From a phage: a stretch of 64,000 nt of DNA. Shown piece by piece: positions 20,330 through 64,000 of the stretch. The number at the start of each line of letters is the position of its first letter. The first letter of the stretch is position 1. The stretch lies in the sequence record PZ452609.1, one strand, 5' to 3'. A program made the position numbers and the translations under genes. Under the pieces are notes generated by a model, which was not told the DNA's origin, searched no databases, and saw only the letters and a program-made list of their open reading frames with translations.

Positions 20330-20338
20330 TTTCTTTAC

Positions 20339-20361
20339 AGGGGCTTTATAGCCCCTTTTAA
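20339..20361 (+). terminator. stem-loop ggggct-ttat-agcccc followed by TTTT
   Basis: hairpin plus T-run between the two fibre genes; member of a recurring GGGGCTT..AAGCCCC element family. Confidence 0.5.
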
Positions 20362-46057: not shown

Positions 46058-46064
46058 AATGAAA

Positions 46065-46086: not shown

Positions 46087-46105
46087 AGCATGTAAAGGGG
46101 CAATA

Positions 46106-48250: not shown

Positions 48251-48404
48251 AACTTGACATGGTGGTGTGAGTCTTGATAGGCTTACATCACCTTTTTTAT
48301 TGGATGTTAGATATGGCAGAGAGTATTATTGGGTTGTTCATAGGTTCTGTCTTACTAGGGTTCTTTTTAGGACTCTCTTATTGTGAATTAAGAGGCAAGT
48401 TAAA

Positions 48405-48997: not shown

Positions 48998-49293
48998 GTA
49001 AAACAATTCGAAGAAAAGGTTTAAAGAACGTTCATGGACTCTATGAGTGGAGAAATGAGGTACGTAACAGAGAAAATGCTTCAGATGTCTACTTCCATTC
49101 TGATATGATGTCCAGAAAAGGTGGCTCTTACGACTTCACAAGCCAGCCTTGTAGAGAGATTAAGAAGGCCACTAAACGTCTTACAAGAACACAAATAAGG
49201 CAGCTTTCTAAGACATCCTTCTTAGATGAAGATTTTGATATTGATAGCAAGTCTCCAAAGAAAGCCGCTAAGAACACTTATATGTATTGGTGA
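48994..49293 (+). CDS. hypothetical protein
   Basis: 99 aa. Confidence 0.35.
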   Translation: MSKTIRRKGLKNVHGLYEWRNEVRNRENASDVYFHSDMMSRKGGSYDFTSQPCREIKKATKRLTRTQIRQLSKTSFLDEDFDIDSKSPKKAAKNTYMYW

Positions 49294-49302
49294 GGTAACT
49301 AG

Positions 49303-49788
49303 ATGAATTACATGGAGATTCGACCATTTGACACAGCTAATGGTGAAGGGGTTCGTGTAAGCCTCTTCGTAGCTGGTTGTAAGCATCACTGTGAAGGTTG
49401 CTTTAATAAGGAATCTTGGAAGTTTAATGCTGGTAAAGAGTTCACTTATGCAAACCTTTATGGCATCATTAAGTTAATGGATGATAATGCCATCAGTGGG
49501 CTGTCAATACTTGGTGGAGAACCTCTAGATGATAGAAATATTCAAGAGGTTACCAACATATGCAAACGTATTAAAACCGTTTACCCAGAAAAATCTATCT
49601 GGCTCTGGACAGGTTTTCAGTTACATGAAAAAATTCACCTTGATGTGATGAAATATGTTGACGTGGTGATTGATGGTAAGTATGATTCATCTAAACCAAC
49701 AGTTAAACCGTATCGTGGTTCAGATAACCAAAACCTCTGGAGAAAAGAGTACGGATGGCAAGGTGATTGTCAGTGGAGAGCAGAGTAA
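49303..49788 (+). CDS. nrdG: anaerobic ribonucleotide reductase activating protein (radical SAM)
   Basis: CKHHCEGC (CxxxCxxC) radical-SAM cluster motif; 161 aa; near nrdD. Confidence 0.75.
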   Translation: MNYMEIRPFDTANGEGVRVSLFVAGCKHHCEGCFNKESWKFNAGKEFTYANLYGIIKLMDDNAISGLSILGGEPLDDRNIQEVTNICKRIKTVYPEKSIWLWTGFQLHEKIHLDVMKYVDVVIDGKYDSSKPTVKPYRGSDNQNLWRKEYGWQGDCQWRAE

Positions 49789-49912
49789 ATCTCGTTATAA
49801 AGTAGGTTATCGGTAAAAGCCACTTTACAATGTTCTACAGAACAAACTTAACCGTTGGTATCACTGAAGAAGAACTTAAAACATTTTGTGAAAAGATTGA
49901 GAGAGATATGAA

Positions 49913-50176
49913 ATGGGACTCTGGAATAGTTTTAAATCAAAAGTGAAAGCAGCACTAGCTTCATTAGGTATGCTCACTGGTGTTGATGTGACTCATCTTA
50001 TGCAGAACTTCAAGATGGATGAGAAACTGGCTAATGAGATTATGAAAAGCATCTATGTAGGCCGTGGCAAAGGTGGTAAGAAGCAAGCCCATCGTCCGAC
50101 TGGTGCAGCAGCAATTAAACGCGCAGCTAAGAAAGCTCGTAACCGTAACCGTAAACGTAATAAGAAGGCTAAATAA
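49913..50176 (+). CDS. small protein with highly basic C-terminal tail
   Basis: C-terminus KRAAKKARNRNRKRNKKAK. Confidence 0.35.
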   Translation: MGLWNSFKSKVKAALASLGMLTGVDVTHLMQNFKMDEKLANEIMKSIYVGRGKGGKKQAHRPTGAAAIKRAAKKARNRNRKRNKKAK

Positions 50177-50178
50177 TC

Positions 50179-50499
50179 ATGAGCAAAGTTTATAACACTC
50201 GTAAATTACAGATTTTCTTACTGTGCCAGTTTATGGCTAGAGAACATAACTCCTACTATTGTGGTACAGGATTCATTAGTGATAATGATGGCTCATATCT
50301 CCCATTCAAAGAGGCTGTAAAACTCTTCAATGAAGAGAAAAGCTCTGAGAAAGATATTGAAAAGGTTAAATTAACCTATAGTAAGAAAGATAAGAAGATT
50401 ATCTGCCTAGATAACTTTGTGAAAGTTACCAAAGAAACTAAAGAGTTAATGGAAGAAAGTGAAATTCCATTCACAAGAATCTTGAAAGTAGCTCAGTAA
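50179..50499 (+). CDS. hypothetical protein
   Basis: 106 aa. Confidence 0.35.
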   Translation: MSKVYNTRKLQIFLLCQFMAREHNSYYCGTGFISDNDGSYLPFKEAVKLFNEEKSSEKDIEKVKLTYSKKDKKIICLDNFVKVTKETKELMEESEIPFTRILKVAQ

Positions 50500-50550
50500 A
50501 CAGATACTATAAGGGGACTGTAAAGGTTCCCTTTTTATTTTGGAGGTAAA

Positions 50551-51066
50551 ATGTATCTGTCAAACCTGAAACGTTCGGTTGCAATGTCAGTTCTAAGACT
50601 CAGCTTTGATGAGCGTCAAGAGTTTATAGACTCCCACAAATATGACCCTTCAAATTCTAATCACATGGTTCTTTGGAATCGTGGTAACTTACGTGAAAGA
50701 GCACTTGTCCGTTATTACCCACACTACACAATAGATAACCTGTATGAATGGTGTGTTGTGAAGAACACCATTGCAACACTGAACAATCTTTGCAGGTATA
50801 CGGGTAAGCAAATATTTACATTAGGTCATCACAAACCTGTTACAAAAGGTGGTGAACATCACTGTGCAAACTGGTTTATCCAAACTAAAGCTGATAACCA
50901 GAAGCAAGGAGATAGCCTCCTAAGTATCCCTAAGATGACCTATGAAGAGCAAGAGAAATATATCAAAAATAATATGCCAGATGTGCTTGACAACAACTAT
51001 ACAGATTTGGCAATATCTCTCCTGTTGAAGTTCGAGACAGTTTATAGGGCAACTTATAATGACTAA
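50551..51066 (+). CDS. HNH endonuclease-like protein
   Basis: GHHKPVTKGGEHHCANWFIQTKADNQKQ resembles HNH/His-Me finger core. Confidence 0.4.
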   Translation: MYLSNLKRSVAMSVLRLSFDERQEFIDSHKYDPSNSNHMVLWNRGNLRERALVRYYPHYTIDNLYEWCVVKNTIATLNNLCRYTGKQIFTLGHHKPVTKGGEHHCANWFIQTKADNQKQGDSLLSIPKMTYEEQEKYIKNNMPDVLDNNYTDLAISLLLKFETVYRATYND

Positions 51067-51337
51067 AGAAAAGTGGGAGATTTTACCATTAGTCAGTGAA
51101 GGAGGTAATGGTTGTGAAATGTACATGATACGTGGTCATGTTCCAGAGCCAATTGCACTTGAGATGGTAAACAACTTTACAGATGGTTCTTACAAAGACT
51201 TAGGCGAACCAACTGTCAAGCAACAATGGGTTAAACCTGTACCAGACAGCACAGGTAACTGTAGTGTACTTTATCACGTTGTAGACCCTGCAAAATGCAA
51301 ATCTGCAATGGCAGTAACAAACGTAACTTTTGATTGA
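51059..51337 (+). CDS. hypothetical protein
   Basis: 92 aa. Confidence 0.35.
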   Translation: MTKEKWEILPLVSEGGNGCEMYMIRGHVPEPIALEMVNNFTDGSYKDLGEPTVKQQWVKPVPDSTGNCSVLYHVVDPAKCKSAMAVTNVTFD

Positions 51338-52230
51338 GAGAGAAAACTATGAAAACATCTATCCGTGTTACAGTTCATTCACCAACTAAAGGGACTCATG
51401 AAGAAGAGTTTAACATCGTCCAATTCCCTTCTGGTGAGATTGGTGGACACTTTTCGCCAGAGTTTGTTGATTTTACTGCTTATGCAGCATCATCCATCAA
51501 CAATGTGATTATGATTGTAAAAGGTTATGACAAGGACACATTGTTTGCTGTGGCACTTGCTAAAGAAGCAATTGATGATTTAATTCCTCATGATTATGCT
51601 TTAAAGACTGTCATCTTTTACTACTTACCAAATGCACGATATGACCGTCACATGTTTAAAGGTGACGCAGCAGCTTTAAAGGTTTTTGCTAAACAGATTA
51701 ATGCAATGGGATTTGGCGCAGTCTGTGCAGTTGACCCTCACAGCTATGTACCAGATAACCTGTTTAACTGCTTCCAGAGTATTCCTCAAAAGGAGATTGC
51801 AGTCCACTATGCAAATGACCCACTGGTTGATTACTTAGTAGCCCCAGATGCAGGTGCTGCTAAGAAGGTTGCAGAGACCGCTAAAGAGGTGGATAAACCA
51901 TATATCACAATGTCTAAGGTGCGTAACCTTAAGACTGGTGAAATTACTGGTATGCGAATCCTTGATGATGTTGATTTGACAGATAAAACCGTCATGATTC
52001 TGGATGATATCTGTGATGGTGGTCGAACCTTCATAGAAGCAGCTAAGCATCTCCGTGAAGCAGGTACAAAACGTGTGGAACTCTATGTAACACATGGTAT
52101 CTTCTCTAAAGATGTTGAAAACCTTCTTGACAATGGTATTGACCATATCTACACTACAAACTCTTTAGGGGAAGCTAAAGACCGTGGCTTAACACATTAT
52201 GGTCAAGTTACTGTAGCAAACCTTGATTGA
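51334..52230 (+). CDS. ribose-phosphate pyrophosphokinase-like enzyme (PRPP synthetase family; possible ADP-ribose pyrophosphokinase)
   Basis: PRTase-type binding motif VMILDDICDGGRTF; 298 aa; immediately upstream of Nampt-like gene. Confidence 0.7.
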   Translation: MREKTMKTSIRVTVHSPTKGTHEEEFNIVQFPSGEIGGHFSPEFVDFTAYAASSINNVIMIVKGYDKDTLFAVALAKEAIDDLIPHDYALKTVIFYYLPNARYDRHMFKGDAAALKVFAKQINAMGFGAVCAVDPHSYVPDNLFNCFQSIPQKEIAVHYANDPLVDYLVAPDAGAAKKVAETAKEVDKPYITMSKVRNLKTGEITGMRILDDVDLTDKTVMILDDICDGGRTFIEAAKHLREAGTKRVELYVTHGIFSKDVENLLDNGIDHIYTTNSLGEAKDRGLTHYGQVTVANLD

Positions 52231-52239
52231 AACTTTATA

Positions 52240-52260
52240 GGGGCTTAAAAGCCCCATTTT
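52240..52260 (+). terminator. stem-loop ggggc-ttaaaa-gcccc + ATTTT between the two NAD-module genes
   Basis: hairpin and T-run; member of recurring GGGGCTT..AAGCCCC family. Confidence 0.4.
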
Positions 52261-52275
52261 GAGAGAGATTAAAAG

Positions 52276-54057
52276 ATGACTAAATCACTTTATGCAGTAC
52301 CAGCAGGTTTAAATGCAGATGCTTACAAATCTGGTCATGTTTACCAGTATCCTAGTGCAACAGAATACTTGATGTTCAACCTGACACCACGTAGTGATAA
52401 ATGGTTTAACAGCCCTTTAGCAATTGACGGTGTAGTGGCTTTTGGTATTCAACGTTTTGTTAAAGATTACTTGATAGACCACTGGAATGCCACTTTCTTT
52501 GAACGTGATAAAAAAGAAGCCATTGATGAAATCTTAGAAGTCATGAATGGTGTTCTGGGTAAAGATGCTATCGGTCGAGAGCATTGGGAAGCACTTCACG
52601 ACTTAGGTTATCTACCAGTTGAAGTATACGCTGTAGAAGAAGGCACAGTTGTTCCAATGCGTGTCCCGATGATTGTCTTTCAGAACACTGTTTCAGGTTT
52701 TCATTGGGTAGCAGGTTATCTGGAAGATGCTTTCTCTGCTGAAATTTGGAAGGCTTGCACCATTGCAACTATTGCATTGCATTACAAACGCATCTGTAAG
52801 AAGTGGGCTGACCTTACTTGTGACAATGACTTACATTTACCTTATCAGTGCCATGATTTTGCTATGCGTGGTATGTCCGGCTTTACTGATGACGCATTTA
52901 ACGCTGTAGGTCACTTAACCAGCTTTAAAGGGACTGATAGCTTCCCTGCTGTATACACGGCTAAACGAATCTATGGACAGTCCTACCCAATCTCTGATAT
53001 TGGTAGCTCTGTACCAGCCACTGAGCACTCTGTAATGTGTGCAAACATTGCTTGGGAAGGTGGTAATGAGTTGATTGAAGAAGAAAGACGCTTTAAAGGT
53101 GAGTTACAAACCTTCCGTCGTTTCTTAACAGAAACTTACCCAACAGGTATTGCAAGTATTGTTTCAGATACTTATAACTTCTGGAGAACTGTGTCAGAAA
53201 TCTTACCAGCACTTCGTAAAGAAATTATGGAACGTGATGGCAAACTGGTAATTCGCCCTGACTCTGGAGACCCTGTACATATTGTCACAGGTTATAAAGC
53301 AATCCACTTAGAATGTGCTAAGAAGGCTTATTACGAGCACCTAAGCAAGCTGGAAGTCAGTGACACAATGTTGAATGCTGTTCTTAACATGAAGCTTGAA
53401 AACATCAACTATGGTATTGCTGGATGGCTACTGTCAGAAGGCTACGAAATGGTTGTTGACAGAGAAGACTTTGAAGTTGCTGATACAGTGATGTTGAAGA
53501 ACGCTTATATGGTTGGTTCTGCAAACGTTGTAACACGCCCTGTAGCAGAGATTGATGGAGCTATTAAGACCTTGTATAACATCTTTGGAGGAACTATCAA
53601 CTCTAAAGGTTTTAAGGTACTGGATGAGCACATTGGACTTATCTATGGCGACTCTATCACGTTGGAACGTGCAAACGAAATCCTGAAGCGTCTGTATGAA
53701 ATGGGGTTTGCAAGCTCTAACGTGGTGTTTGGTGTAGGCTCTTACACTTACCAGTACATGACTCGTGACACCTTTGCATTTGCTGTCAAAGCAACTCTTG
53801 CAAGCATTGGTGGCAAAGAGATTATGCTTGCAAAAGACCCTAAAACAGATAGTGGTGTTAAGAAATCTGCCTTTGGTGGTGTAGCACCTATGTGGGATGG
53901 TGAGAATTTGAAAGCTGTAGATGGCTATGGATTCCAGAGCTTTGCAGATGCACTTGAACATCCAGCTTGTGCTTTACGTTTAGTCTTTAGCGACTCTGAG
54001 CAGTACGGTTACACAACTCTTGGTGATATTCGAAATAATATTGACAAGCAGCTTTAA
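52276..54057 (+). CDS. nadV: nicotinamide phosphoribosyltransferase-like enzyme (Nampt/NadV family)
   Basis: 593 aa; family assignment by overall similarity of pattern (e.g. VSDTYNFW) and by pairing with Prs-like gene. Confidence 0.6.
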   Translation: MTKSLYAVPAGLNADAYKSGHVYQYPSATEYLMFNLTPRSDKWFNSPLAIDGVVAFGIQRFVKDYLIDHWNATFFERDKKEAIDEILEVMNGVLGKDAIGREHWEALHDLGYLPVEVYAVEEGTVVPMRVPMIVFQNTVSGFHWVAGYLEDAFSAEIWKACTIATIALHYKRICKKWADLTCDNDLHLPYQCHDFAMRGMSGFTDDAFNAVGHLTSFKGTDSFPAVYTAKRIYGQSYPISDIGSSVPATEHSVMCANIAWEGGNELIEEERRFKGELQTFRRFLTETYPTGIASIVSDTYNFWRTVSEILPALRKEIMERDGKLVIRPDSGDPVHIVTGYKAIHLECAKKAYYEHLSKLEVSDTMLNAVLNMKLENINYGIAGWLLSEGYEMVVDREDFEVADTVMLKNAYMVGSANVVTRPVAEIDGAIKTLYNIFGGTINSKGFKVLDEHIGLIYGDSITLERANEILKRLYEMGFASSNVVFGVGSYTYQYMTRDTFAFAVKATLASIGGKEIMLAKDPKTDSGVKKSAFGGVAPMWDGENLKAVDGYGFQSFADALEHPACALRLVFSDSEQYGYTTLGDIRNNIDKQL

Positions 54058-54069
54058 AAGTATATGATA

Positions 54070-54094
54070 AGAGGCTCCTACGGGAGCCTTTTTA
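54070..54094 (+). terminator. intrinsic terminator (aggctcc-UACG-ggagcct + TTTT)
   Basis: perfect stem and T-run. Confidence 0.65.
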
Positions 54095-54110
54095 ATTTCT
54101 GGAGAATGCT

Positions 54111-54455
54111 ATGGACAACCTTTCCATATGGTTTAACAATAAACCTGTACAACCGAAATACTTACAAGTTGCCTATACAGACATCCTTAAAGTTCTCGGT
54201 AAAGAAAAGTTTGAAAAGTTTTGTGAAGGTATCTACAATCACCACTGCCAATTTGCTACAAAAGAAGGTATGTTTGTCATAGAACAGTTCTTTGGCAGAG
54301 ACCCAGATGACTACGAAGAGATTAGCTTTGTAATGAAATACATGATAGAGTATATTGAAAATCGTGGATTCGAAGTTAATCCTGAATTTTATGAACATGA
54401 GGGTGTACCTTTAGCAAAAGGTTTCGATGGCATACTCATTAACTGGACTTGGTGA
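54111..54455 (+). CDS. hypothetical protein
   Basis: 114 aa. Confidence 0.35.
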   Translation: MDNLSIWFNNKPVQPKYLQVAYTDILKVLGKEKFEKFCEGIYNHHCQFATKEGMFVIEQFFGRDPDDYEEISFVMKYMIEYIENRGFEVNPEFYEHEGVPLAKGFDGILINWTW

Positions 54456-54796
54456 AAACTATGAAAATCAAAGAGATGAACATCAACATTATCTTAGAAG
54501 AACGTTGGGAGAACATTAAGAAACCTGAAGATGGTAAAAAGTTCCTTAACAAAATTTTAGTAGCAGCTAAAGAAGAACTGACTGGCAAGATTGCAGCAGC
54601 AATCACAATAAAAGTTTGTGTAAAAGGTCTTCCAGACCATCACCAATTTGCACTTGACGAGTTTAAAAAAAGCTTCTACAATCCAAACAAACAGATGCTT
54701 GAAAGTAACTTTGCAGTATCTACAAGTATCGTCCATGACAGAAGCTTTATCCTTTACAAAAACATGAGGGGTGAGTCATGCAAGCATATTGGGTAG
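54449..54796 (+). CDS. hypothetical protein
   Basis: 115 aa. Confidence 0.35.
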   Translation: MVKTMKIKEMNINIILEERWENIKKPEDGKKFLNKILVAAKEELTGKIAAAITIKVCVKGLPDHHQFALDEFKKSFYNPNKQMLESNFAVSTSIVHDRSFILYKNMRGESCKHIG

Positions 54797-54954
54797 AAAT
54801 TTTACTGTCACTTGGTAGTGTAGCAGTCCTTGTTTATCTTCTTTGTAAGTACTTTGCAGAACACAAGAAGTGTGACTACTGTAACGGAGAAGGGTATACA
54901 AGAGCAGGTTGTTGCCCTATGTGTGGTGGTTCTGGTAAAATGTTTAATAAGTAA
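54778..54954 (+). CDS. small membrane-anchored zinc-finger protein (58 aa, not in ORF track)
   Basis: N-terminal hydrophobic helix, C-terminal CDYCNGEG...CPMCGGSG (two CxxCxGxG-like units); RBS gaggggtgag. Confidence 0.3.
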   Translation: MQAYWVEILLSLGSVAVLVYLLCKYFAEHKKCDYCNGEGYTRAGCCPMCGGSGKMFNK

Positions 54955-54982
54955 TTTAACAGTAAACTAAGAGGAAAGTATT

Positions 54983-57349
54983 ATGCGCATGGTAAATGAC
55001 CACGCAGAAGTGATTAAGAGTTCAACTTCTTTAGAGACGTCTCAAGCACAGATTACAATGACACCTGAGATGTTCAGCCTTTTGAGTTCTGGTGTATATA
55101 CCTTTAAAGAAAGGGCAGTGATTCGTGAACTGTCATGTAACGCAGTAGATGCTCAGAAAGAAGCTGGAAAAGAGAACATTCCGTTCCATGTGCATTTACC
55201 TACTCGTTTTGAGCCTTACTTTGAAGTTCGTGATTTTGGAACTGGATTGACTCATGATAAAGTTATGAGTTTGTACCTAAACTACGGGGCTTCTACGAAG
55301 AATGACTCTAATGACTACATTGGTGCAATGGGTATCGGCTCAAAATCCCCATTTGCAATTGCTCAGTCATTCACAGTATCTAGCTATGTTGATGGTGTTG
55401 TTAATAAGTACTCTGTTTATCTTGAGAATGGTATCCCTCAAGTAACTAAGCTGACCACTAACCCAACAAAAGAACCTAATGGTTTAGCTGTACGTGTGGC
55501 AGTTGCTGACCACCGTATCTCAAAGTTCTTTGAAGAAGCTGGAAATGTGTACTCATACTTCACTGTAAAACCAGAAAGTAATATTGAGTACGACGATGTA
55601 TTAGCAGATATGAACGTCATTGCCCGTGAAGAAGGTGTTTATGATGCCATGATTCATAAGCAAAGCTGGCGTTCTAGTGGTAACAGGACAGAGTTTAATG
55701 TGGTGATGGGTAATATTGCCTATCCAGTGAACATGGAAGCATTACTTGGTGATGATTTCTTCAAAGTCTTGCCAGAGTTTTTCCGTAGGAGCGTAGACCT
55801 TGTAAACATCTACATGCCTATTGGTTCAGTTGCTATAGCAGCTTCTCGTGAAGCATTGCAGATGAATGATACGACAAAAAATGTTATCATCGAGGCTACC
55901 AAAAAGATAACTGAAGCAATTACAAAGGATGTTATCAAGAAAGTTAATAGCCAACCTACACTCATGGATGCTGCACAGGCTTATGCAGAGCTACGTTTGA
56001 ACTCACGAGAGATGTTTAATGCTGTGTGTCCAAAGCTAGAGTGGGGAGGCATTAAGCTTGATTCTCTGGAAGAAGAATTGTTAAACATTCGTCGTGGAAT
56101 TATCTACGCAGAAGACGGCTCAGTCATTTATGAACGTGACGGTAAAGGCAATATTAAGGTTGATAGGAACGGGAACAATATCCCTAAAGTAGATTATCTT
56201 TATGACCCAGTTGCTTATGTCAAGTTCAACTCTTTAGAGAGTAAGATTCGTGCAACAGCACTTTCCTACACTCAAGAGGCAAGCATGTTCAATATCTTTG
56301 GTGCAATGCGTAAAAGCCAAATTGAACAGTTTTTGTTCGTGATTAATGACCGTCGCAATAAAAACGGTACTGAGAAGACTGTAGGACGCAATCAAATTTT
56401 GCGTGGTGCATGTCGAGACTACGCCAGTGAGTCAAATCTGTTTCACAGATACAATGGTATTGTCTTTGTATTCTCGACTGAAAAAGAGTTAGATGATTTA
56501 ATCAATCTACACAAACTTGATAAAAGCTTGTTAAAGATTGTGAAGATGTCTGATAAGGAACACCACTATCAGCGTAAAGAAGCTGTAAGGGGTGTTGTAA
56601 AACTCTGGAAAGCTGTTCCAGCAGAAACTAAAGCTTCATACAAAGAGGTGTCAGAAGACTTAGACACAATTGAAGAGCCTCAGCTTTATATTAAGGCAGT
56701 AGGTGACACAGTTGATGGTAGATGTTTTTGCTCATCTCCAGAGGATGTAGCTAAGTCAGTTGCTAATGTTACAGGCAAGACAGTCTATGTTTTCCGAAAA
56801 GCAAATTGGAAAAAGATACCAGAAGACTGGATTGAAGTAGATGAGAAGCTCTTGAACGACAGCTTAACTGATGTTCATTGGATTAACCATAACAGGTATA
56901 TGACACGCATCTACATGGATGGTGTCCTCGACCTTACAAGCAGTTGGATTATTGCCAGAAACTTTACGTTCAATAACAGGAAGATTTCTCGCGGGTATTG
57001 TTATTCAAGGGATACTATTAAGACAATCTTCTTAGAAGGGAATGAAGATGCTGTTGAGGCAATGTTCGGTAAGATTCAGTATGTGGCTGCACCGTTTGCA
57101 TACACTTACACTATCAGTGTTCTTCAGGATTTGAAGTCATGCCTTGATAATGACACAAAACTGTACAAAAAGATTAAAAAAGCAGGTGACCGCATGGTTA
57201 TCAAGCTGACAAACTATCTTTCAAAAAGAAAACAAGAAAACTTCTTGCTTTCACACTTAGATTGGAATAAAGTATCACCTATCGAAGTGAGTAAGTTTTT
57301 AGGCTTTAATGTGAAATGTGTTCCAGAAGGTACAACAATTTACGATTAA
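54983..57349 (+). CDS. rIIA: rIIA-like protein with N-terminal GHKL-type ATPase domain
   Basis: GHKL N-box IRELSCNAVDA, G1 DFGTGLT, G2 GAMGIGSKSPF; 788 aa, followed by rIIB-size gene. Confidence 0.45.
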   Translation: MRMVNDHAEVIKSSTSLETSQAQITMTPEMFSLLSSGVYTFKERAVIRELSCNAVDAQKEAGKENIPFHVHLPTRFEPYFEVRDFGTGLTHDKVMSLYLNYGASTKNDSNDYIGAMGIGSKSPFAIAQSFTVSSYVDGVVNKYSVYLENGIPQVTKLTTNPTKEPNGLAVRVAVADHRISKFFEEAGNVYSYFTVKPESNIEYDDVLADMNVIAREEGVYDAMIHKQSWRSSGNRTEFNVVMGNIAYPVNMEALLGDDFFKVLPEFFRRSVDLVNIYMPIGSVAIAASREALQMNDTTKNVIIEATKKITEAITKDVIKKVNSQPTLMDAAQAYAELRLNSREMFNAVCPKLEWGGIKLDSLEEELLNIRRGIIYAEDGSVIYERDGKGNIKVDRNGNNIPKVDYLYDPVAYVKFNSLESKIRATALSYTQEASMFNIFGAMRKSQIEQFLFVINDRRNKNGTEKTVGRNQILRGACRDYASESNLFHRYNGIVFVFSTEKELDDLINLHKLDKSLLKIVKMSDKEHHYQRKEAVRGVVKLWKAVPAETKASYKEVSEDLDTIEEPQLYIKAVGDTVDGRCFCSSPEDVAKSVANVTGKTVYVFRKANWKKIPEDWIEVDEKLLNDSLTDVHWINHNRYMTRIYMDGVLDLTSSWIIARNFTFNNRKISRGYCYSRDTIKTIFLEGNEDAVEAMFGKIQYVAAPFAYTYTISVLQDLKSCLDNDTKLYKKIKKAGDRMVIKLTNYLSKRKQENFLLSHLDWNKVSPIEVSKFLGFNVKCVPEGTTIYD

Positions 57350-57354
57350 AGTGT

Positions 57355-57384
57355 TTGACAAGGGGCTTTGAAGCCCCTTAGAAT
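57355..57384 (+). promoter_or_regulatory. promoter TTGACA-N18-TAGAAT with hairpin in spacer
   Basis: -35 57355-60, spacer is aggggct-ttga-agcccct palindrome, -10 tagaat 57379-84. Confidence 0.45.
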
Positions 57385-57428
57385 AGCCTCACAAATTGAT
57401 TGATTAACTAACAAGAGAGAGTAATAAG

Positions 57429-58538
57429 ATGACTACTAAAACTAAAGCACAGATTGACGCAGAAATTTACAAACTGGTTAAAGAAGGTAAGCTGACTAAA
57501 ACAGCTATTGCACAGAAGTTCAATACTTCAACCCGTTCAGTTGGTCGTGCTGTAGAGCGTCATGAAGCAACCTTAAAAGGCAAGAAGAAGGCAACTTCTA
57601 CACCAGCTACGAAGACTTTGAAACAATTTGCTAAGACTTTTAAAAAGAAAGCTGGCAAACCAGTTGAAAAGGTCGTTAAAGACACTGTACAGAAAGCTCC
57701 AGTAAATAAACTGCACGAAGCTATGCAGAAAGATGACAAGATTGAGTACATGATTACTGGTGATTCTGTAATTATGACTTATGGTTCAGAATCTGAAATT
57801 GTTGAGTCTACTCATCCGAACTATCAAGAGATTGTAGTTCATGTTGTGAAAGGTCAGTTCAAGAAAGCATTTGAACTGATGAACATTCGTAAGTCTATCG
57901 AAAACTTCACTCAGGGTGCTATCACAATCAAAGGCGACAAGCTATTCTACGGTGCTGTTGAGATGCGTTCTACTCTGGTTGACCGTATTCTTCACATGAT
58001 GAAAACTGGCGATAAAGGTTTTGAACGACTTGTAATGTTCTTCGAAAAACTGATGGAAAACCCATCTAAAGATTCTGTAGAACAACTTTGGGGATTTGTA
58101 TCTCACCTTGATGTTGAAATTGATGAAGAAGGCTACATCATTGGTTGGAAGAAAGTCTCTACTCGTGAAGGCAAGCTGGTTGACTCTCACACCTACAAAG
58201 TGCCTAATGATTTGGGTAACATTGTAGAAATGCCACGTTGGATGGTTGATAATAACCGTAACGTAACTTGCTCTCAAGGTCTTCATGTTGGTGCTTGGGA
58301 TTATGTTCGTTGCTTCTCAGGTGATACAATCCTGAAGGTTCGCGTACATCCACGAGATGTTGTATCTGTTCCAACTGATTACAATGATATGAAGATGCGT
58401 TCCTCTCGTTATGAAGTTGCAGCAATCGTTGATAATCAACGTAAAGTGCTGGAAGCATGGGACGGTAAGACTGAAGCTTTGCATGTCATCGTTGGCACTG
58501 CTGGTGAACTCATCTCTCAACGTAAACGTGAAATCTAA
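57429..58538 (+). CDS. rIIB-like protein (putative), N-terminal HTH-like region and basic linker
   Basis: 369 aa directly downstream of rIIA-like gene; assignment by synteny only. Confidence 0.35.
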   Translation: MTTKTKAQIDAEIYKLVKEGKLTKTAIAQKFNTSTRSVGRAVERHEATLKGKKKATSTPATKTLKQFAKTFKKKAGKPVEKVVKDTVQKAPVNKLHEAMQKDDKIEYMITGDSVIMTYGSESEIVESTHPNYQEIVVHVVKGQFKKAFELMNIRKSIENFTQGAITIKGDKLFYGAVEMRSTLVDRILHMMKTGDKGFERLVMFFEKLMENPSKDSVEQLWGFVSHLDVEIDEEGYIIGWKKVSTREGKLVDSHTYKVPNDLGNIVEMPRWMVDNNRNVTCSQGLHVGAWDYVRCFSGDTILKVRVHPRDVVSVPTDYNDMKMRSSRYEVAAIVDNQRKVLEAWDGKTEALHVIVGTAGELISQRKREI

Positions 58539-58544
58539 TAAGTA

Positions 58545-58568
58545 ATTTCTTAAAAGGCTGCTTCGGCG
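58545..58568 (+). terminator. intrinsic terminator (aggcugc-UUCG-gcggccu + T-run)
   Basis: stem with one G-U pair, UUCG loop, TTTTTT. Confidence 0.6.
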
Positions 58569-58579
58569 GCCTTTTTTAT

Positions 58580-58607
58580 TTGTATTTTGTGCAGAGTGCT
58601 GTATAAT
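58580..58607 (+). promoter_or_regulatory. putative promoter TTGTAT-N16-TATAAT
   Basis: perfect -10 tataat 58602-07. Confidence 0.35.
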
Positions 58608-58638
58608 TGATGTCACGATAAACTAAACAGGAGAACCA

Positions 58639-59187
58639 ATGAAGAAATTGATTCTAGGTTTGTGCTTAATGTTTACAGCACACTTATCTTATGCAGTTGA
58701 CTGCCCAGAACTATCAATTAGCCAAAAAGTGAACATGTTAAAAGCTTACCAGTATGGTGAGAATAACATGGGTAAAGGTTGGGGTATCACTCTAGCAGCT
58801 ATAGCCTTACAAGAGTCAGAGTTAGGTCTGAAGGTAGAAAATAAAAAGACCCATGACTATGGTATCTTCCAGAATCACTTGAAGACTGTTGTAAAGCGTA
58901 ACAAAATTAGTCCTAATGTTGCTAAAAAGAAACTCTTAAAAGATTTTGACTATGCCGCAAAAGAAACACATAAAGAGCTTGAGTTTTGGACGAAGGTGCA
59001 TGGTCACCCAAAGTCAAAGAAGACTTTACAAAAAGTTTTAGCATCATATAATGCTGGGTATTCGTACAGAATCCCTAAAGCTAAGAAATATTCTCAAGAT
59101 GTCTATAACAACATGAAAGTTATTGCTCAATGTGAATTTGCAACAAACATTTCTAAGGTAAACCATGAAAAAATTAAAAAAGTCTGA
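58639..59187 (+). CDS. secreted lytic transglycosylase-like protein (putative endolysin)
   Basis: signal peptide MKKLILGLCLMFTAHLSYA; SLT-like core AIALQESELG...DYGIFQ. Confidence 0.5.
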   Translation: MKKLILGLCLMFTAHLSYAVDCPELSISQKVNMLKAYQYGENNMGKGWGITLAAIALQESELGLKVENKKTHDYGIFQNHLKTVVKRNKISPNVAKKKLLKDFDYAAKETHKELEFWTKVHGHPKSKKTLQKVLASYNAGYSYRIPKAKKYSQDVYNNMKVIAQCEFATNISKVNHEKIKKV

Positions 59188-59860
59188 TGAAGTCCTGTGC
59201 CACGCTTATGACTTACATCCTCATGAGTTAGGTCTTGATTCCTGTGTATGGACTCCAGAACAGTGTAGGGATTTTGAAGACACTGCAAGAGAAGTTGTAT
59301 GTTCACTGGAAGAGTTCCACACATCAGAACCAATTGTGAACGTTGTGGACAAAGAGACTGGACAAACTATAGGTGTAAGGCGCGATAGTTTAGTCATAGT
59401 CAATAAAGACCTTGTAGAAAAAGGTAACCTCATCTTAGCAGATATTGATGGTGTTCTTACAAATTTTAATCACGAAGATTGCTCAACGGAATTGACTGAT
59501 GGTTCATTCTCACAGTACACTAATCTTCTTGATTCTGTAAGAGCAAAGCCAACATATGTTTTCAACATTATTGATGCAATTGCAAATCATGCAGCAGTTG
59601 GACTCTTGACAGCAAGAGGTGAATCTCAGAGAATACCTACTGAGATGTTTTTAAGGCACAATATAGAGCATGATTACTTGCTTTTTATGCGTGGTTTTGG
59701 AACTAACTCTATAAGTGCAGAAAGTTTGAAAGTGAGGATGATTCAGTCTTGCATTCTTCCTTACTTTAATATAGTATGCTTTATAGAAGATACAGAGAAT
59801 AATGTTCAGAAGGTAAACAGAATCCTTCCACACATTAAAACTATGTTAGTTAAACATTGA
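59165..59860 (+). CDS. HAD-superfamily phosphatase-like protein
   Basis: motif I ADIDGVLT, motif II LLTARG, later FIEDTENN. Confidence 0.45.
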   Translation: MKKLKKSDEVLCHAYDLHPHELGLDSCVWTPEQCRDFEDTAREVVCSLEEFHTSEPIVNVVDKETGQTIGVRRDSLVIVNKDLVEKGNLILADIDGVLTNFNHEDCSTELTDGSFSQYTNLLDSVRAKPTYVFNIIDAIANHAAVGLLTARGESQRIPTEMFLRHNIEHDYLLFMRGFGTNSISAESLKVRMIQSCILPYFNIVCFIEDTENNVQKVNRILPHIKTMLVKH

Positions 59861-60336
59861 GAGAAGAACTTATGAACAATATTATTACGGTAGCACTGGA
59901 CGATACGGCAAACAAATCTGAAGTAGTTCGTAAAATGATTCAAGGTAACTTTGAAGGTAAAATTTTCCGTGCTGTTAATGTAAAAGCTGATGGTAGCATT
60001 CGTGAATATCGTGCATTGTTGAACGTTAAGAAGCACGTAAAAGGTGTTGGTTCAACGACTGCACACAAAGAAAACCTGATGACTATCTATGATATGGGTA
60101 AGGCTTCAGAGTTAGGTGCTGAAGGTATCGTTAAAGAAGGTGCTCCGTATCGCTCTTTCAATCTGGAAACTACTCTTATGCTTTCCTTTACAAGTGGTTC
60201 CAAAACAATCACTTATCTCTTTACTGATGCTGCAACGGTATCTGCTATTAAGGATAGCACTGTCAAAGCTGGCGTAGTTGCTGCTGCAAAAGCTTCTTCG
60301 ATGGCTGCAAATATCCTTGCTAAAGTCCTCGGTTAA
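59857..60336 (+). CDS. hypothetical protein
   Basis: 159 aa. Confidence 0.35.
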   Translation: MREELMNNIITVALDDTANKSEVVRKMIQGNFEGKIFRAVNVKADGSIREYRALLNVKKHVKGVGSTTAHKENLMTIYDMGKASELGAEGIVKEGAPYRSFNLETTLMLSFTSGSKTITYLFTDAATVSAIKDSTVKAGVVAAAKASSMAANILAKVLG

Positions 60337-60347
60337 GGTTAAGATAC

Positions 60348-60370
60348 AGGCTCCTTCGGGAGCCTTTTTC
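60348..60370 (+). terminator. intrinsic terminator (aggctcc-UUCG-ggagcct + TTTT)
   Basis: perfect stem, UUCG loop, T-run. Confidence 0.65.
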
Positions 60371-60388
60371 ATTTCAGGAGATTGTTAA

Positions 60389-60736
60389 ATGACATTTAAA
60401 GAGTTCTGTCAAGCTACTTTCATAATTGTTTTCTTAGTTGGGGCAGGTGTCTGGGGAGGATACTCTTACAGAGACTACCAAGTTGCTGAAACTGAGCTAA
60501 ACAACCAGAAGCTAATAAGTGTTGCTAAAGATGCTTATCAGGAAGGATTAGCTACACTGAGCACCAATTACAAAAATGATTTGAAAGACGTGCTTGCTAA
60601 GAATAAGCACACAAAAGAGGTACTGACATATGAAAAGACTAAGCCAGAGTTTTATAATGTTTGTGTTACTGATAACTATGTCAGGGTGTTCAACGAACAA
60701 AGTGAGCAATACATTCAAAAACTCCCAAGTAAGTGA
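60389..60736 (+). CDS. i-spanin-like protein (Rz-like, putative)
   Basis: N-terminal TM anchor FIIVFLVGAGVWGG then helical periplasmic domain; 3' end overlaps a lipoprotein ORF in another frame. Confidence 0.4.
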   Translation: MTFKEFCQATFIIVFLVGAGVWGGYSYRDYQVAETELNNQKLISVAKDAYQEGLATLSTNYKNDLKDVLAKNKHTKEVLTYEKTKPEFYNVCVTDNYVRVFNEQSEQYIQKLPSK

Positions 60737-60896
60737 AAGTGATAAGTACACTCAGGAAGATGTAAGATATGCTGTCAAAGGTAACACTGGTGCAGACTTA
60801 TCAGAAGCCCTTGAGTTTTATCGTGACGGGTACTATCAGTGTACTATGAAAGCTAACAACTTGATTGATATGATTTTATTAGGGAATAAGCAGTAA
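60630..60896 (+). CDS. o-spanin-like lipoprotein (Rz1-like, putative), embedded/overlapping
   Basis: MKRLSQSFIMFVLLITMSGC lipobox-like signal; begins inside the preceding gene in +1 frame. Confidence 0.35.
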   Translation: MKRLSQSFIMFVLLITMSGCSTNKVSNTFKNSQVSESDKYTQEDVRYAVKGNTGADLSEALEFYRDGYYQCTMKANNLIDMILLGNKQ

Positions 60897-61168
60897 TGAC
60901 ACAAAGTAATGATGAAACTTTCTACACAGAAGGTTACTTACTTCTACCGAGACCGAAAGATACTTACATGAGGATTGATTTCTTACCTACGATTATGGAT
61001 AATGTAATGTGTCACATCTTTATGCAAGGTATCACAGCACAGCTTAAGCATGTTGGTAAAGAGTGCAAAATAAAGGTTGACACTCATCCAGAAATCAAAG
61101 AGAATCACTACACATGGTTCCTACCAGACTCTAAAGAAATCTTAGCAGTTCTTAAAACGAGGAAATGA
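60896..61168 (+). CDS. hypothetical protein
   Basis: 90 aa. Confidence 0.3.
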   Translation: MTQSNDETFYTEGYLLLPRPKDTYMRIDFLPTIMDNVMCHIFMQGITAQLKHVGKECKIKVDTHPEIKENHYTWFLPDSKEILAVLKTRK

Positions 61169-61479
61169 TTATGCAATTCCAGCCAACAAATCGTGGATTT
61201 TCTTATGCAGAATTTAAAGATGCTAAAGGGGAAATTTGTACTTTACAAGAGAGTTCATCATACGAACCATGTATCTGGTTAGGTGCTAAAGAGGTCTCTG
61301 TTCAGTACCTAGATAATGGCTGGAAAACACTTGATATCCCAGCATTAGTTGGTAAAGATTTTATAGGTAATCAAAGAATGAAGCTCAATCAAGAACAGGT
61401 AAAAGAGTTGTTGCCGTACCTTCAATACTTTGCTGAAAATGGTGAATTACCAACAGAGGAACTTACAAATGCAGATTAA
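61165..61479 (+). CDS. hypothetical protein
   Basis: 104 aa. Confidence 0.3.
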   Translation: MIMQFQPTNRGFSYAEFKDAKGEICTLQESSSYEPCIWLGAKEVSVQYLDNGWKTLDIPALVGKDFIGNQRMKLNQEQVKELLPYLQYFAENGELPTEELTNAD

Positions 61480-61795
61480 TGGAAGAGACTTTGTAGCCGT
61501 TTACTACGAGAAAGGTAAAGAAGTTGGCGTAGCGCAAGTATCTTATGGCAATGGTGGGTGGCTATATGGAACAATCGCAGTAGTTGGAACGAGAAGTGAT
61601 ACAAAAACTTTTAAAGATTGTGTTGACCTTCTTGAAGAATCCATTCAGAATCATTGGTGTCTGATATGGATGACTGACAACGAAGTGATAGAACGCTTCA
61701 AAAAGATTGATATCAACATTGATAGTATTGAGCATGTTGATTTATATGAGCTAACTGAGAAGGTAAACTATGAGAGTAATTCTAGCCAGAGATAA
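61469..61795 (+). CDS. hypothetical protein
   Basis: start ATG 61469 with RBS gagga. Confidence 0.3.
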   Translation: MQINGRDFVAVYYEKGKEVGVAQVSYGNGGWLYGTIAVVGTRSDTKTFKDCVDLLEESIQNHWCLIWMTDNEVIERFKKIDINIDSIEHVDLYELTEKVNYESNSSQR

Positions 61796-61997
61796 AAAGA
61801 CACGGAAACTCATCCGGTCAGCAGTATTCATTGGAAGAAATGAAGTCATCCCGTTTACAGCAAACGATGTGATAGCCTACAGGAAAAACTTAGTGTTTAG
61901 TGATTGCTTGCGTGGCTTCATCTCCCAACCGTTGGAAGATTTTAAAAGCCGTTGTGGTAAAGGTATCATCATTCAAGAGGCAATTATCAATGGCTGA
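61770..61997 (+). CDS. hypothetical protein
   Basis: 75 aa. Confidence 0.3.
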   Translation: MRVILARDKKTRKLIRSAVFIGRNEVIPFTANDVIAYRKNLVFSDCLRGFISQPLEDFKSRCGKGIIIQEAIING

Positions 61998-62190
61998 CTT
62001 CTGCAAAGACTGTTCTATCGAAATGTTCGGACGTGATACAGGTGACTTAAAAGGTCTTATCACTGAAGATGACTTTAAAGCTGGTTATGCAATGCCAGTA
62101 ATCTGTGAAGGTTGTGGGTGCATCTGGGTAGACCACGAAGGACAACGTGTAAAACCTTCAGAAGACAAAGAATCTTGGGAGAGATGTTAA
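61990..62190 (+). CDS. small zinc-binding protein
   Basis: CKDC ... CEGCGC Cys clusters; RBS agagg. Confidence 0.3.
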   Translation: MADFCKDCSIEMFGRDTGDLKGLITEDDFKAGYAMPVICEGCGCIWVDHEGQRVKPSEDKESWERC

Positions 62191-62976
62191 ATGGGTATTG
62201 TAAAAATAATTAATGGTGATATCTTTGCCGCATTTGATAAAGGTAAGTTTGACATCATCGGTCACGGTTGCAACTGTATGAATTTAATGGGTGCAGGTAT
62301 CGCTGACAAGATTTCTAAACTTTACCCAAAAGCATATGAGACCGATACAGAAGTTTATCTGTATGCAGGTGGTATAGGACACAAACCCTGTGAAAATTTA
62401 CTGGGTAATTTCTCTGTAGCACGTTTAAAACAAGGTCGTATAGCTAACCTTTACACTCAGCTTAAGACTGGTAAAGATGCCCGATACAGTGCTTTAGAGT
62501 CATCTTTGAAACAGCTTAACAGATACTGTGAAGTTAATCAGTTGAAGAAGGTTGGTTTACCTATGATTGGTGCAGGTATCGGTGGACTTGACCCTCAAGC
62601 CGTCACAGTTATCATTAATCAGGTGATGAAGAGTGTAGATGTTTATCTGTATGTCTACGAAGGAGAGATGTACCACAAGTTACGCTCAGGTTGGAATAAC
62701 TACTGTGAACCAGAATACTTTGCAGGTGTAGTAACGTTCAAAGATGATACAGTTACCCTCTTCAGACGAAGAAAAGGTAAGATACATCAAAGTAACCCTC
62801 CGGTTGAGAAGATGTCTCTAAGTAACGCTCTAGTTACCCACCTGTCGAAGAGCAATCACAGGATAGCCGTAACATTTGGCAGTGATGCAGATACATATAT
62901 TTATGCAAGAACTGATGAGGATATCGAGACGGTCTTCTCTTCACCAGAAGTTACCTTCTTAGACGCAAAGAACTAA
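62191..62976 (+). CDS. macro domain-like protein (ADP-ribose binding/processing, putative)
   Basis: N-terminal INGDIFAAF..FDIIGHGCNCMNLMGAGIADKI and later GLPMIGAGIGG resemble macro-domain Gly-rich motifs. Confidence 0.4.
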   Translation: MGIVKIINGDIFAAFDKGKFDIIGHGCNCMNLMGAGIADKISKLYPKAYETDTEVYLYAGGIGHKPCENLLGNFSVARLKQGRIANLYTQLKTGKDARYSALESSLKQLNRYCEVNQLKKVGLPMIGAGIGGLDPQAVTVIINQVMKSVDVYLYVYEGEMYHKLRSGWNNYCEPEYFAGVVTFKDDTVTLFRRRKGKIHQSNPPVEKMSLSNALVTHLSKSNHRIAVTFGSDADTYIYARTDEDIETVFSSPEVTFLDAKN

Positions 62977-63045
62977 GAAACTCTGTATAATATTCACAAT
63001 AGACTAAGCCTTCTTTATCTGGTAAATTTTTCAGGTAAGGAGGGC

Positions 63046-63230
63046 TTTTTCATTTCAGGATTGTGCAGGTAGAGTTCTGTAGAGAAATCTGTAGAGAGAA
63101 TTTTGAACTCCAAAGAGAAAATTCATTTTCAAACTGTGCAGGTAATCTCCAAAGAGCTTTTTCATTTTCAAAACGTGCAGACCCCGCTCAGGTCGGGCAA
63201 GAAAAATCATTTTAGAATCGTGCAGGTAGG
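63046..63230. repeat. four direct repeats of a ~22-nt motif TTCATTT(T)CAnAnnGTGCAGGTA
   Basis: copies at about 63049, 63122, 63162, 63207 with unequal spacing (73, 40, 45 nt). Confidence 0.7.
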
Positions 63231-63404
63231 TTTTTATAGAGAGCCAGACCAACCCCTCTCCCCCTCTTACTCCACCTCTCCCCAAAAGTCAAGAGAAAAA
63301 TTTGTAGCGGGTTGAAAAATAATTCTTGATTTGTGTTCTGTTTTGTGGTAGTCGTGCGCGCCCGTTCATTTCCCAACCTTACAAAAAATATTTAATAAAA
63401 ACCG

Positions 63405-63433
63405 TTGACACGCCAAACAAGTTTACGTACTAT
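63405..63433 (+). promoter_or_regulatory. near-consensus sigma70 promoter TTGACA-N17-TACTAT with A/T-rich UP-like tract
   Basis: -35 63405-10, -10 63428-33, upstream acaaaaaatatttaataaaaa. Confidence 0.55.
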
Positions 63434-63482
63434 TTGCATCAGACGGGCAAGCAAGCCCACTTCCTAAACTGGAGAATCGAAA

Positions 63483-63689
63483 ATGCTTTATAGTCGTGAA
63501 TTGATGGTTACAACTAACGTTAACACAAAGGTAAAACGTTTTTACATGCAAGTATGTGGCGCATGGTCTAGAATATCAGAGGCTGACTATTGCAACTATG
63601 TAGAAACAGCTATAAACTCTAATTGCTACCTTACAAGAAATACAAGAAAGTACATAAGACAGACAGCAGTTTATTACTACGATGCCTAA
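63483..63689 (+). CDS. hypothetical protein
   Basis: 68 aa, RBS ggaga. Confidence 0.35.
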   Translation: MLYSRELMVTTNVNTKVKRFYMQVCGAWSRISEADYCNYVETAINSNCYLTRNTRKYIRQTAVYYYDA

Positions 63690-63780
63690 TAAAGTACTTT
63701 ACAAGGGGCTTAAAAGCTGATATCTTAAGCCCCAGATAAAGAGCTTTACCAAATCAACCCTTAAACTAGGAGATTCAAAA

Positions 63781-64000
63781 ATGGCATATCGTGCACCTAA
63801 ATTCATCAACAAAGACAACTTTCGCAACGCACTGGAGAAGTCACTTGATGAGAATTTTAAAGGTAACGTTATTGTTGTTCACTCGTTTAATTTTAAGTAT
63901 GATATCAATGGGAATAAAATTAACCATTACACGGCGACAATGCTAGATGGTACTCTTTCAAGTGAAAAAGCCATTTTACATGCACTTGCTGGACGTGGTA
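63781..64000 (+). CDS. hypothetical protein, 3'-partial at window edge
   Basis: ATG 63781 with RBS aggag, open to end of window. Confidence 0.35.
   Translation, partial: MAYRAPKFINKDNFRNALEKSLDENFKGNVIVVHSFNFKYDINGNKINHYTATMLDGTLSSEKAILHALAGRG

Follow-up and report, generated by a model that had tools for sequence, protein, structure and literature searches.

Promoter-early stem-loops (PeSLs) were described in the phages RB49/phi1, PST/T4 and nt-1/KVP40 (Arbiol 2010, PMC2839356; Comeau 2014, PMC4122927). They sit between ORFans in hyperplastic regions and mediate indels, and both promoter and attenuator activities were demonstrated with lacZ fusions; the promoters were very strong, and one stem-loop cut lacZ expression about as much as rrnB T1 (PMC2839356, PMC4122927). 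In the RB49 genome, the elements include TTGACA-GGGGATC..GATCCCC-TATAAT and taaAAAGTTGTTGACAGGGGATCACCGATCCCCTATAAT..., and another class has the -10 hexamer in the loop. PeSLs are described only in T4-like phages in the searchable literature.

Felix O1-like phages are widely used for typing and biocontrol, and their transcriptional control is essentially undescribed. The Felix O1 genome paper stated that the transcriptional and temporal regulation of the phage was unknown, and listed the same sequences that are analyzed here as 57-bp and 39-bp 'direct repeats', with no function (Whichard 2010, PMC3185647). Promoters and terminators are not mentioned in the wV8 genome paper, and no reports of transcript starts or ends, or of RNA-seq, were found for Felix O1-like phages in the searchable literature. 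The record of phiEa21-4, a Felix O1-like phage, holds 12 exact copies of GGACTCTTCGGAGTCC, annotated as terminators. Lehman and colleagues reportedly described, in 2009, a repeated and precisely conserved Rho-independent terminator of this phage in 24 copies. A further known class is formed by the terminal stabilizing stem-loops of E. coli and phage mRNAs, e.g. the ompA 5' hairpin and REP elements.

The window analyzed here is the whole 64,000-nt stretch of phage DNA (sequence record PZ452609.1). It holds four copies of a GGGGCT...AGCCCC hairpin (sites 1 to 4), which were assigned, with moderate confidence, to composite PeSL-type promoter/stem-loop cassettes in a Felix O1-like (Felixounavirus) genome. 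Sequence anatomy, conservation pattern, covariation and indel boundaries were read directly from the sequences.

Four copies of one hairpin at gene boundaries

The 2-kb stretch around site 3 matched E. coli O157 typing phage 1 (NC_041979, whose minus strand corresponds to the plus strand of the window) at 100% identity and phage wV8 at 99.9%, both of them Felix O1-like myoviruses (Ounavirinae, Felixounavirus). Between 10098 and 56500 the coordinate offset to NC_041979 (L001/L002) shifted by ~1.3 kb, so the window represents a very near relative that carries at least one indel, and not that exact record.

A pattern search for GGGGCT-N(2-20)-AGCCCC returned exactly four matches in the window, all on the plus strand, against a shuffle mean of 0.02 (0/100 shuffles reached four). 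When up to 2 mismatches were allowed, no additional convincing copy was found in the window. The original prediction had listed four such elements and held that they were not due to chance; their sequences were verified at all four coordinates, the excess of matches agrees with the second point, and the copies are related. It had also proposed a genome-wide motif search, for which the count of four holds within the window only, as the series goes on past the window end with at least six near-identical cassettes.

All genes adjoining the four sites lie on the plus strand. Site 1 separates two tail-fibre genes, site 2 prs and a nicotinamide phosphoribosyltransferase gene, site 3 rIIA and rIIB, and site 4 small early ORFs (Table 1). 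The stop codon of the upstream gene lies 4-13 nt before each copy, and a hexamer TT(T/G)A(C/T)A stands 0-1 nt before each hairpin. The predicted RNA hairpins ranged from -11.5 to -21.1 kcal/mol, comparable to the evident terminators of this phage. A scan of the whole window with Rfam covariance models gave 0 matches at the gathering score. The recurring hairpin was confirmed as real, and it is assigned to a family of compact, putative promoter/stem-loop cassettes between genes.

Table 1. Positions of the hairpin copies, their flanking signals and other elements in the window
Site	Feature	Position	Strand	Remarks
1	Stop codon, tail-fibre gene	20327-20329	+	
1	TTTACA + hairpin + TTTT	20334..20359	+	
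1	Hairpin GGGGCT-TTAT-AGCCCC	20340-20355	+	loop at 20346-20349
1	ATG, next tail-fibre gene	20376	+	
2	Stop codon, prs	52228-52230	+	
2	TTTATA + hairpin + ATTTT	52234..52260	+	
2	Hairpin GGGGCT-TAAA-AGCCCC	52240-52255	+	
2	ATG, nicotinamide phosphoribosyltransferase gene	52276	+	
3	Stop codon, rIIA	57347-57349	+	
3	Putative -35 hexamer TTGACA of rIIB promoter	57355..57360	+	6 nt past rIIA stop codon
3	Promoter spacer, 18 nt	57361..57378	+	wholly palindromic
3	Core hairpin GGGGCT-TTGA-AGCCCC	57362-57377	+	
3	Predicted RNA stem	57360-57379	+	8 bp, -13.3 kcal/mol
3	Putative -10 hexamer TAGAAT	57379..57384	+	
3	Predicted transcript start, rIIB	~57391	+	
3	ATG, rIIB	57429	+	
4	Stop codon, upstream gene	63687-63689	+	
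4	Type I early cassette, extended dyad	63690..63750	+	between stop codon and ORF ATG
4	-35-like hexamer TTTACA	63698..63703	+	CTTTACA invariant in 64 distinct cassette sequences
4	Hairpin GGGGCTTAA-AAGCTGATATC-TTAAGCCCC	63705..63733	+	9-bp stem
4	Putative -10 hexamer TATCTT	63721..63726	+	in loop + 3' arm
4	Predicted transcript start	~63734	+	
4	ATG, downstream ORF	63781	+	
	TTGACT-N17-TAATAT in hairpin loop	22930-22958		
	TTGACA-N17-TAGAAT, -10 in hairpin loop	37807-37845		upstream of ORF at 37872
	TTGACA next to terminator hairpin	48254-48298		TTGACA at 48254; after nrdD
	TTGACA-N16-TATGAT with terminator	54041-54092		hairpin + T-run at 54069-54092
	Four ~24-nt direct repeats	63049-63230		at 63049, 63122, 63161, 63207
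	C-rich tract	63245-63283		after the ~24-nt repeats
	Main early promoter TTGACA-N17-TACTAT	63405-63433		

At site 1 (-16.5 kcal/mol) the outer helix extends into the Shine-Dalgarno sequence AAGAG; the hairpin is conserved in relatives, the upstream hexamer and the T-run are not. At site 2 (-11.5 kcal/mol) an invariant stem is preceded by a hexamer that is not conserved and followed by the tail A(T/C)T(A)TTGAGAGAG. In phiEa21-4 the site 2 genes overlap and the hairpin is absent. No -10 hexamer was found at sites 1 and 2, so the sigma70 -35/-10 pair of a PeSL is lacking at both. Neither site 2 nor a rIIB promoter is mentioned in the Felix O1 genome paper (PMC3185647).

The original prediction took the two copies with T-runs for terminators or attenuators, and all the hairpins might be weak Rho-independent terminators, with the -35-like hexamers and TTGACA-N18-TAGAAT incidental. 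For site 1 a terminator or attenuator is plausible: its Felix O1 homologue t76 (gggggctgtacagccctcttt) was predicted by TransTerm (PMC3185647), and phiEa21-4 has its canonical, precisely repeated terminator at the corresponding tail-fibre boundary. Short T-runs follow sites 1 and 2. As canonical intrinsic terminators, however, sites 1 and 2 were not upheld, because their T-runs are only TTTT and ATTTT and are not conserved in other genera, where TAGAAAG, TATAAAG or ACTATTG stands in their place and the hairpin stays. The sequence 3' of the hairpins is TTTT-AAG at site 1, A-TTTT-G at site 2, TTAGAAT at site 3 and AGATAAAG at site 4; a hairpin with a U-run of the usual length (at least 5-6) was found at none of sites 1-4, sites 3 and 4 are without any T-run, and a terminator scan of 44001-64000 did not pick up sites 2-4. 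The evident terminators of the genome are different hairpins with long T-runs. The phiEa21-4 hairpin is similar in that one near-identical hairpin is reused at many boundaries, including the tail-fibre boundary; it differs in being a canonical terminator with a UUCG loop and a long T-run that does not lie inside promoters, whereas the GGGGCT hairpins lack a proper T-run. As a -35/-10 pair is also conserved at exact spacing at site 3 and in 122/123 cassettes (below), terminators throughout were considered unlikely.

Because the hairpins lack a proper U-run, efficient intrinsic termination is not expected by E. coli rules. Sites 1 and 2 are hairpin-only relatives, whose most likely role would be to attenuate read-through or to stabilize the upstream mRNA; the stabilizing stem-loops of E. 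coli and phage mRNAs are likewise short, G+C-rich hairpins at an mRNA end, without a U-run.

The putative rIIB promoter region

The original prediction had placed the third hairpin exactly in the spacer of TTGACA-N18-TAGAAT, and this was borne out, with strong comparative support. The two hexamers give an 11/12 sigma70 match, among the three best in 44001-64000, and the predicted transcript start was derived from normal sigma70 geometry. For comparison, 30 related loci around rIIB were taken from IMG/VR. TTGACA (or TTGACT), the spacer hairpin and TAGAAT (or TAAAAT) were kept in 29/30 of these, down to 76% rIIB amino-acid identity. In the 29 loci, TTGACA-(A)GGGGCT-loop-AGCCCC-T-TAGAAT is the longest conserved block in the rIIA-rIIB spacer, with divergence on either side, in the rIIA 3' end and in the rIIB 5'UTR. 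The stem is invariant save for AACCCC in 2 loci, and the loop is free (with a TTGA/TCAA flip). The spacer measures 18 nt in Felixounavirus and 17 nt in more distant genera.

Two of the more distant phages differ. One locus (L032, 60% identity) combines TTGACA with a wholly unrelated-looking hairpin (AAGTGGTC..GGCCACTT) in the corresponding position. In phiEa21-4 the junction between rIIA and rIIB retains a hairpin, GGGCTGGAAACAGCCC, and lacks a promoter, which suggests that the hairpin may serve the upstream transcript. When the 30-nt element of site 3 was compared by BLAST with 50,697 phage records, full-length matches came only from Ounavirinae, and the remaining matches were hairpin-only chance matches; in the matching public records the element is never annotated.

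In Felix O1 the RT-PCR maximum of rIIB came at 10 min and that of rIIA at 25 min (PMC3185647), which fits rIIB having its own promoter. Site 3 is accordingly best described as a putative sigma70-type promoter of rIIB whose spacer forms a stem-loop.

Early cassettes and single-gene shuffling

The fourth element of the original prediction was also found, with two corrections: a candidate -10 hexamer lies inside its loop, 17 nt from TTTACA, and the element is not a single copy. It is the first in a near-identical series that continues just past the window end, with at least six further copies downstream in NC_041979, between consecutive small early ORFs. These cassettes (type I) share the sequence AAAGTAC-TTTACA-N-GGGGCTTA-loop-TAAGCCCC-AGATAAAGAGCTTTACC...CCTAAACTGGAGATTCAAAAATG, with ATAAAGTAC upstream of TTTACA. 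Altogether 123 type I cassettes were counted in 30 IMG/VR loci, and there were 3-8 cassettes per locus in 25 loci. When 64 distinct type I cassettes were aligned, the invariant columns were CTTTACA, GGGG, 'TA' in the loop and CCCCAGATAAA. In 122/123 cassettes a TAnnnT hexamer follows TTTACA at a distance of 17 nt (115 copies) or 18 nt, and at least 12 different hexamers occupy this -10 position in otherwise variable loops. A conserved TAAAGT before TTTACA was rejected as an alternative -10 of type I, as -35 scores further upstream equalled background.

Type II cassettes alternate with type I and read TTGACA-N17-TAAATT-N10-GGGGAGGG..CCTTCCCC, the 3' part being common to both types. In NC_041979 (L001) they lie on the minus strand at 33180-27100, just beyond the window end, where the -35 is TTGACA or TAGACA and N17, TAAATT and exactly 10 nt precede the hairpin GGGGAGGGAATGACCTTCCCC. 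Starting 10 nt past the -10, this hairpin would fall near +4 of the transcript and so resemble a 5'-terminal stabilizing stem-loop. In Felix O1, CTTTACATGGGGCTTAAAAGTCTGTAAAGTAAGCCCCAGATAAAGAGCTTTACCACT corresponds to the type I cassette and TTGACACTGG...TAAATTACACATCAAC to the type II promoter (PMC3185647), and the cassettes thereby explain the 'direct repeats' reported in 2010. Site 4 is one of this family of putative early promoter/stem-loop cassettes, its promoter being predicted from the hexamers and their spacing.

The dyad of site 4 extends beyond the hairpin, as TAAAGT.CTTTA - CAA - GGGGCTTAA(loop 11)TTAAGCCCC - AGA - TAAAG.GCTTTA, giving 6+5+9 bp and -21.1 kcal/mol (z -4.2). Across the 64 distinct cassettes 97.6% of cells were paired, compared with 30-60% in slid controls, and one outer pair covaries (GC 43, UA 11, GU 2, other 8), although covariation of the cassette flanks could partly be linkage within 50 nt. 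Such a ~20-bp helix with internal loops, between every pair of small early genes, might be an RNase III-type processing site like those between the T7 early genes, whose cleavage would yield stable monocistronic early RNAs. The dyad, its pairing and the compensatory outer pair are what this proposal draws on. It would apply to the long cassettes only, since the stems of sites 1-3 (6-8 bp) are too short; the outer helix is A/U-rich and overlaps a -35 and a 5'UTR that are conserved for other reasons, and the covariation is thin (1 pair). The dyad gives RNA processing some scope, and RNase III processing was rated improbable.

Gene order was mapped by clustering the ORFs downstream of rIIB in 31 genomes. 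Clusters 13, 16, 19, 20, 21, 23, 28 and 32 were present or absent as units of one ORF plus one cassette; one ORF was duplicated in one genome (L026), and ORF 23 was found at two positions. Junction sequences placed the breakpoints inside cassettes, and the loops of orthologous cassettes differed from phage to phage. Cassettes thus bound the indels between related phages, as for PeSLs. The repeats could be selfish or neutral scars of duplication and gene conversion, with a hairpin that has no role: besides the indel boundaries and exchanged loops, the sequences 5' of sites 1 and 3 look like the 5' halves of cassettes, and loop flips (below) mark the palindromes as mutationally active. The same three boundaries nevertheless retain the hairpin from genus to genus, amid diverging non-coding sequence, and wobble and compensatory changes preserve its pairing, which makes a roleless scar very doubtful indeed.

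The features common to PeSLs and these cassettes are a sigma70-type promoter with a G-run...C-run stem-loop between -35 and -10 or over the -10, many copies among small ORFans, and indels between relatives that are bounded by the elements. Hexamers ~17 nt apart were found at sites 3 and 4 and in type I; the stem-loop occupies the spacer at site 3, and its 3' arm and loop cover the -10 at site 4. The 3' ends are GGAGAATCAAAatg in RB49 PeSLs and GGAGATTCAAAAatg here. The early cassettes lie in a hyperplastic region; as a counterpoint, sites 1-3 are at conserved genes, outside the plastic region typical of PeSLs. Other differences are the lineage (Ounavirinae here, Straboviridae there), the stem word GGGGCT(TA), TTTACA in place of TTGACA and an extra outer dyad in type I, and the promoter-less, hairpin-only copies at conserved genes (sites 1 and 2). 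Mini-circle formation is a further character of PeSLs. For the cassettes here, promoter and attenuator functions are predicted from the sequence.

Between RB49 and the cassettes here, 12-14 10-mers were shared (shuffle mean ~2), mostly promoter and Shine-Dalgarno words. An 18-mer, CCCATCGAAACGAAACAA, is common to RB49 and phiEa21-4 (null maximum 14). It lies at 131945-132013 in RB49 (L111) and at 10072-10109 in phiEa21-4 (L112), in the 5'UTR part of a PeSL and an early cassette, respectively, and both copies are followed by (G)GA(G)AATCAAAA-ATG. The shared 18-mer may reflect exchange of a regulatory cassette between unrelated phage families, or convergence; homology of RB49 PeSLs and the cassettes is suggestive and not separable from convergence. 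On the common layout, the similar 5'UTR/Shine-Dalgarno ends and this 18-mer, a wider proposal can be based, in which PeSL-type cassettes are a shared, horizontally exchanged module of unrelated virulent enterobacterial phages (Krischvirus RB49, Ounavirinae) and a dedicated processing or recombination factor could read the hairpin (~20 bp in the long cassettes). As a joint proposal this was considered unlikely.

For the favored PeSL-type cassettes, a mechanism can be outlined in which promoter activity, transcript start points and the effect of the hairpin on RNA are inferred. The DNA would carry a host sigma70 promoter whose neutral spacer (site 3) is a G-run...C-run inverted repeat; in site 4 and its sister cassettes the inverted repeat would span the spacer plus the -10 region. 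Polymerase starting from the embedded promoter would begin just 3' of the hairpin and produce the mRNA of the next gene (rIIB or a small early ORF). Polymerase that comes in from the preceding gene would transcribe the entire inverted repeat, so that the upstream mRNA would end in, or be trimmed to, a stable sense-strand hairpin, which may attenuate read-through and/or protect the 3' end. The role of the hairpin would thus be that of an attenuator or 3'-end stabilizer, and sites 1 and 2 would be promoter-less relatives that keep only this function. As ~60-90 nt of near-identical sequence lies between the small early genes, the cassettes could also act as recombination points and serve the gain, loss and shuffling of single genes.

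If so, the PeSL concept, in which a self-contained cassette of promoter and attenuator lets single genes be shuffled, would extend to a second, unrelated phage lineage. The analysis yields testable predictions of promoters and RNA ends for rIIB and for all of the early ORFan region. In phage engineering, genes could be safely inserted or deleted at the cassettes, which would also supply compact, insulated units of expression.

Probable RNA pairing, loop inversions and other elements

Non-Watson-Crick pairs, counted in type I and type II cassettes only, were asymmetric: type I stems had 25 sense-strand G.T and 2 A.C, and the dominant type II hairpin also has a sense-strand G.U. The bias falls mostly on one position (pair 5), whose 3' partner is also in the promoter discriminator, so a promoter constraint could mimic it. 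As the aligned sequences are related to one another, significance is overstated by shuffle controls. Stems were swapped between genera with pairing kept (GGGGTTTATA/TATAAACCCC, GGGGCTA/TAGCCCC and, in L032, GGGGTCT/AGACCCC); L032 carries different stems at the same places, and in the phiEa21-4 stem GGTGTTTA/TAAGCACC pair 3 changed from G-C to U-A, again with pairing kept. Wobbles and compensatory changes together favor a sense-strand RNA hairpin. A palindromic operator for a dimeric DNA-binding protein was rejected as a candidate: half-site spacing is not fixed (4 nt between the arms at sites 1-3, 11-14 nt in the cassettes), and one-strand wobbles are common.

The GGGGCT...AGCCCC sequence could be the site of one specific phage or host factor acting on all copies, such as an RNA-binding protein or antiterminator, a processing nuclease or a recombinase; Arbiol et al. 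speculated likewise for GGGG..CCCC. A sequence-specific reader would fit the 6-bp core, which hardly varies between three unrelated gene boundaries and the cassettes of ~30 Felixounavirus-like genomes while the loops vary freely, and it would fit the 'house' hairpins that other genera have of their own (GGGGTCT in L032, GGACTC in phiEa21-4). The range of half-site spacing, 4 to 14 nt, cannot be reconciled with a single dimeric DNA operator, the stems tolerate wobble and compensatory variants, no candidate protein emerged, and invariance within the genus can stem from low divergence and gene conversion among copies; a single factor is quite improbable. The drift of the stem between genera by compensatory changes (GGGG/CCCC to GGTG/CACC; GGGGTCT/AGACCCC) points to structure rather than a recognition word. 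The original prediction had proposed a phage-specific regulatory or RNA-processing signal. Its regulatory part stands, in that the hairpin cassettes appear to be regulatory; a phage-specific word was not supported by the comparison between genera, and a new class of signal is not called for, as an ordinary host sigma70 promoter in the published PeSL design, here in Ounavirinae, would account for them.

Six pairs of loop variants at sites 1-3 were exact reverse complements, with ~0.4 expected by chance: TTGA/TCAA, TAAA/TTTA, TGAA/TTCA (two sites), TTAT/ATAA and TGAT/ATCA. The flips occur between near-identical genomes; the loop of site 1 is TTAT in the window and ATAA in NC_041979/wV8, and sites 2 and 3 flip in L003-L061. 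They bear the signature of the template-switch inversion known for short palindromes; the loop sequence is accordingly free of constraint, and a DNA hairpin forms during replication. The flips carry no information on function.

Horwitz and Loeb are said to have switched off an engineered E. coli promoter by a cruciform in 1988. The palindrome fills the site 3 spacer exactly and loop inversions imply DNA hairpins at least during replication, and the spacer might thus extrude under negative supercoiling and turn the promoter off. Arms of 6-9 bp are very short for extrusion, however, G.T wobbles are tolerated on one strand only, and the same hairpin occurs where the promoter is absent (sites 1 and 2 and the phiEa21-4 rIIA-rIIB junction), so that a cruciform switch is scarcely credible.

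Sigma70-like matches in intergenic sequence of the window folded no better than those in coding sequence (Mann-Whitney p = 0.32, 13 vs 96), and strong embedded hairpins within the tested span were only those at 63698, 57355 and 37807. The last of these has an 11/12 sigma70 match, and the loop that holds its -10 belongs to AGAGTATC...GGTACTCT (-9.6 kcal/mol), a hairpin with a sense-strand G.U. A further promoter-like pair lies, with its -10, inside the loop of AAGATGGTG...CACCATCTT (22930 in Table 1). Promoter-in-hairpin embedding is thus not limited to the GGGGCT word. At two other places a -35-like hexamer is joined to a terminator, and both are candidate promoters: at 54041 the promoter-like pair runs into a canonical terminator hairpin and T-run, and at 48254 TTGACA lies directly next to a terminator hairpin of 14 bp.

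Upstream of the main early promoter, a 506-nt non-coding stretch contains the four ~24-nt direct repeats, (T)TCATTT(T)CA..GTGCAGGTA, followed by the C-rich tract. At the equivalent place in phiEa21-4 (L112, 9265-9723) a like repeat, TTTTCATTTTCAATTTGTGCATAGG, was found in four copies. The ~24-nt repeats could be origin iterons or regulator binding sites.
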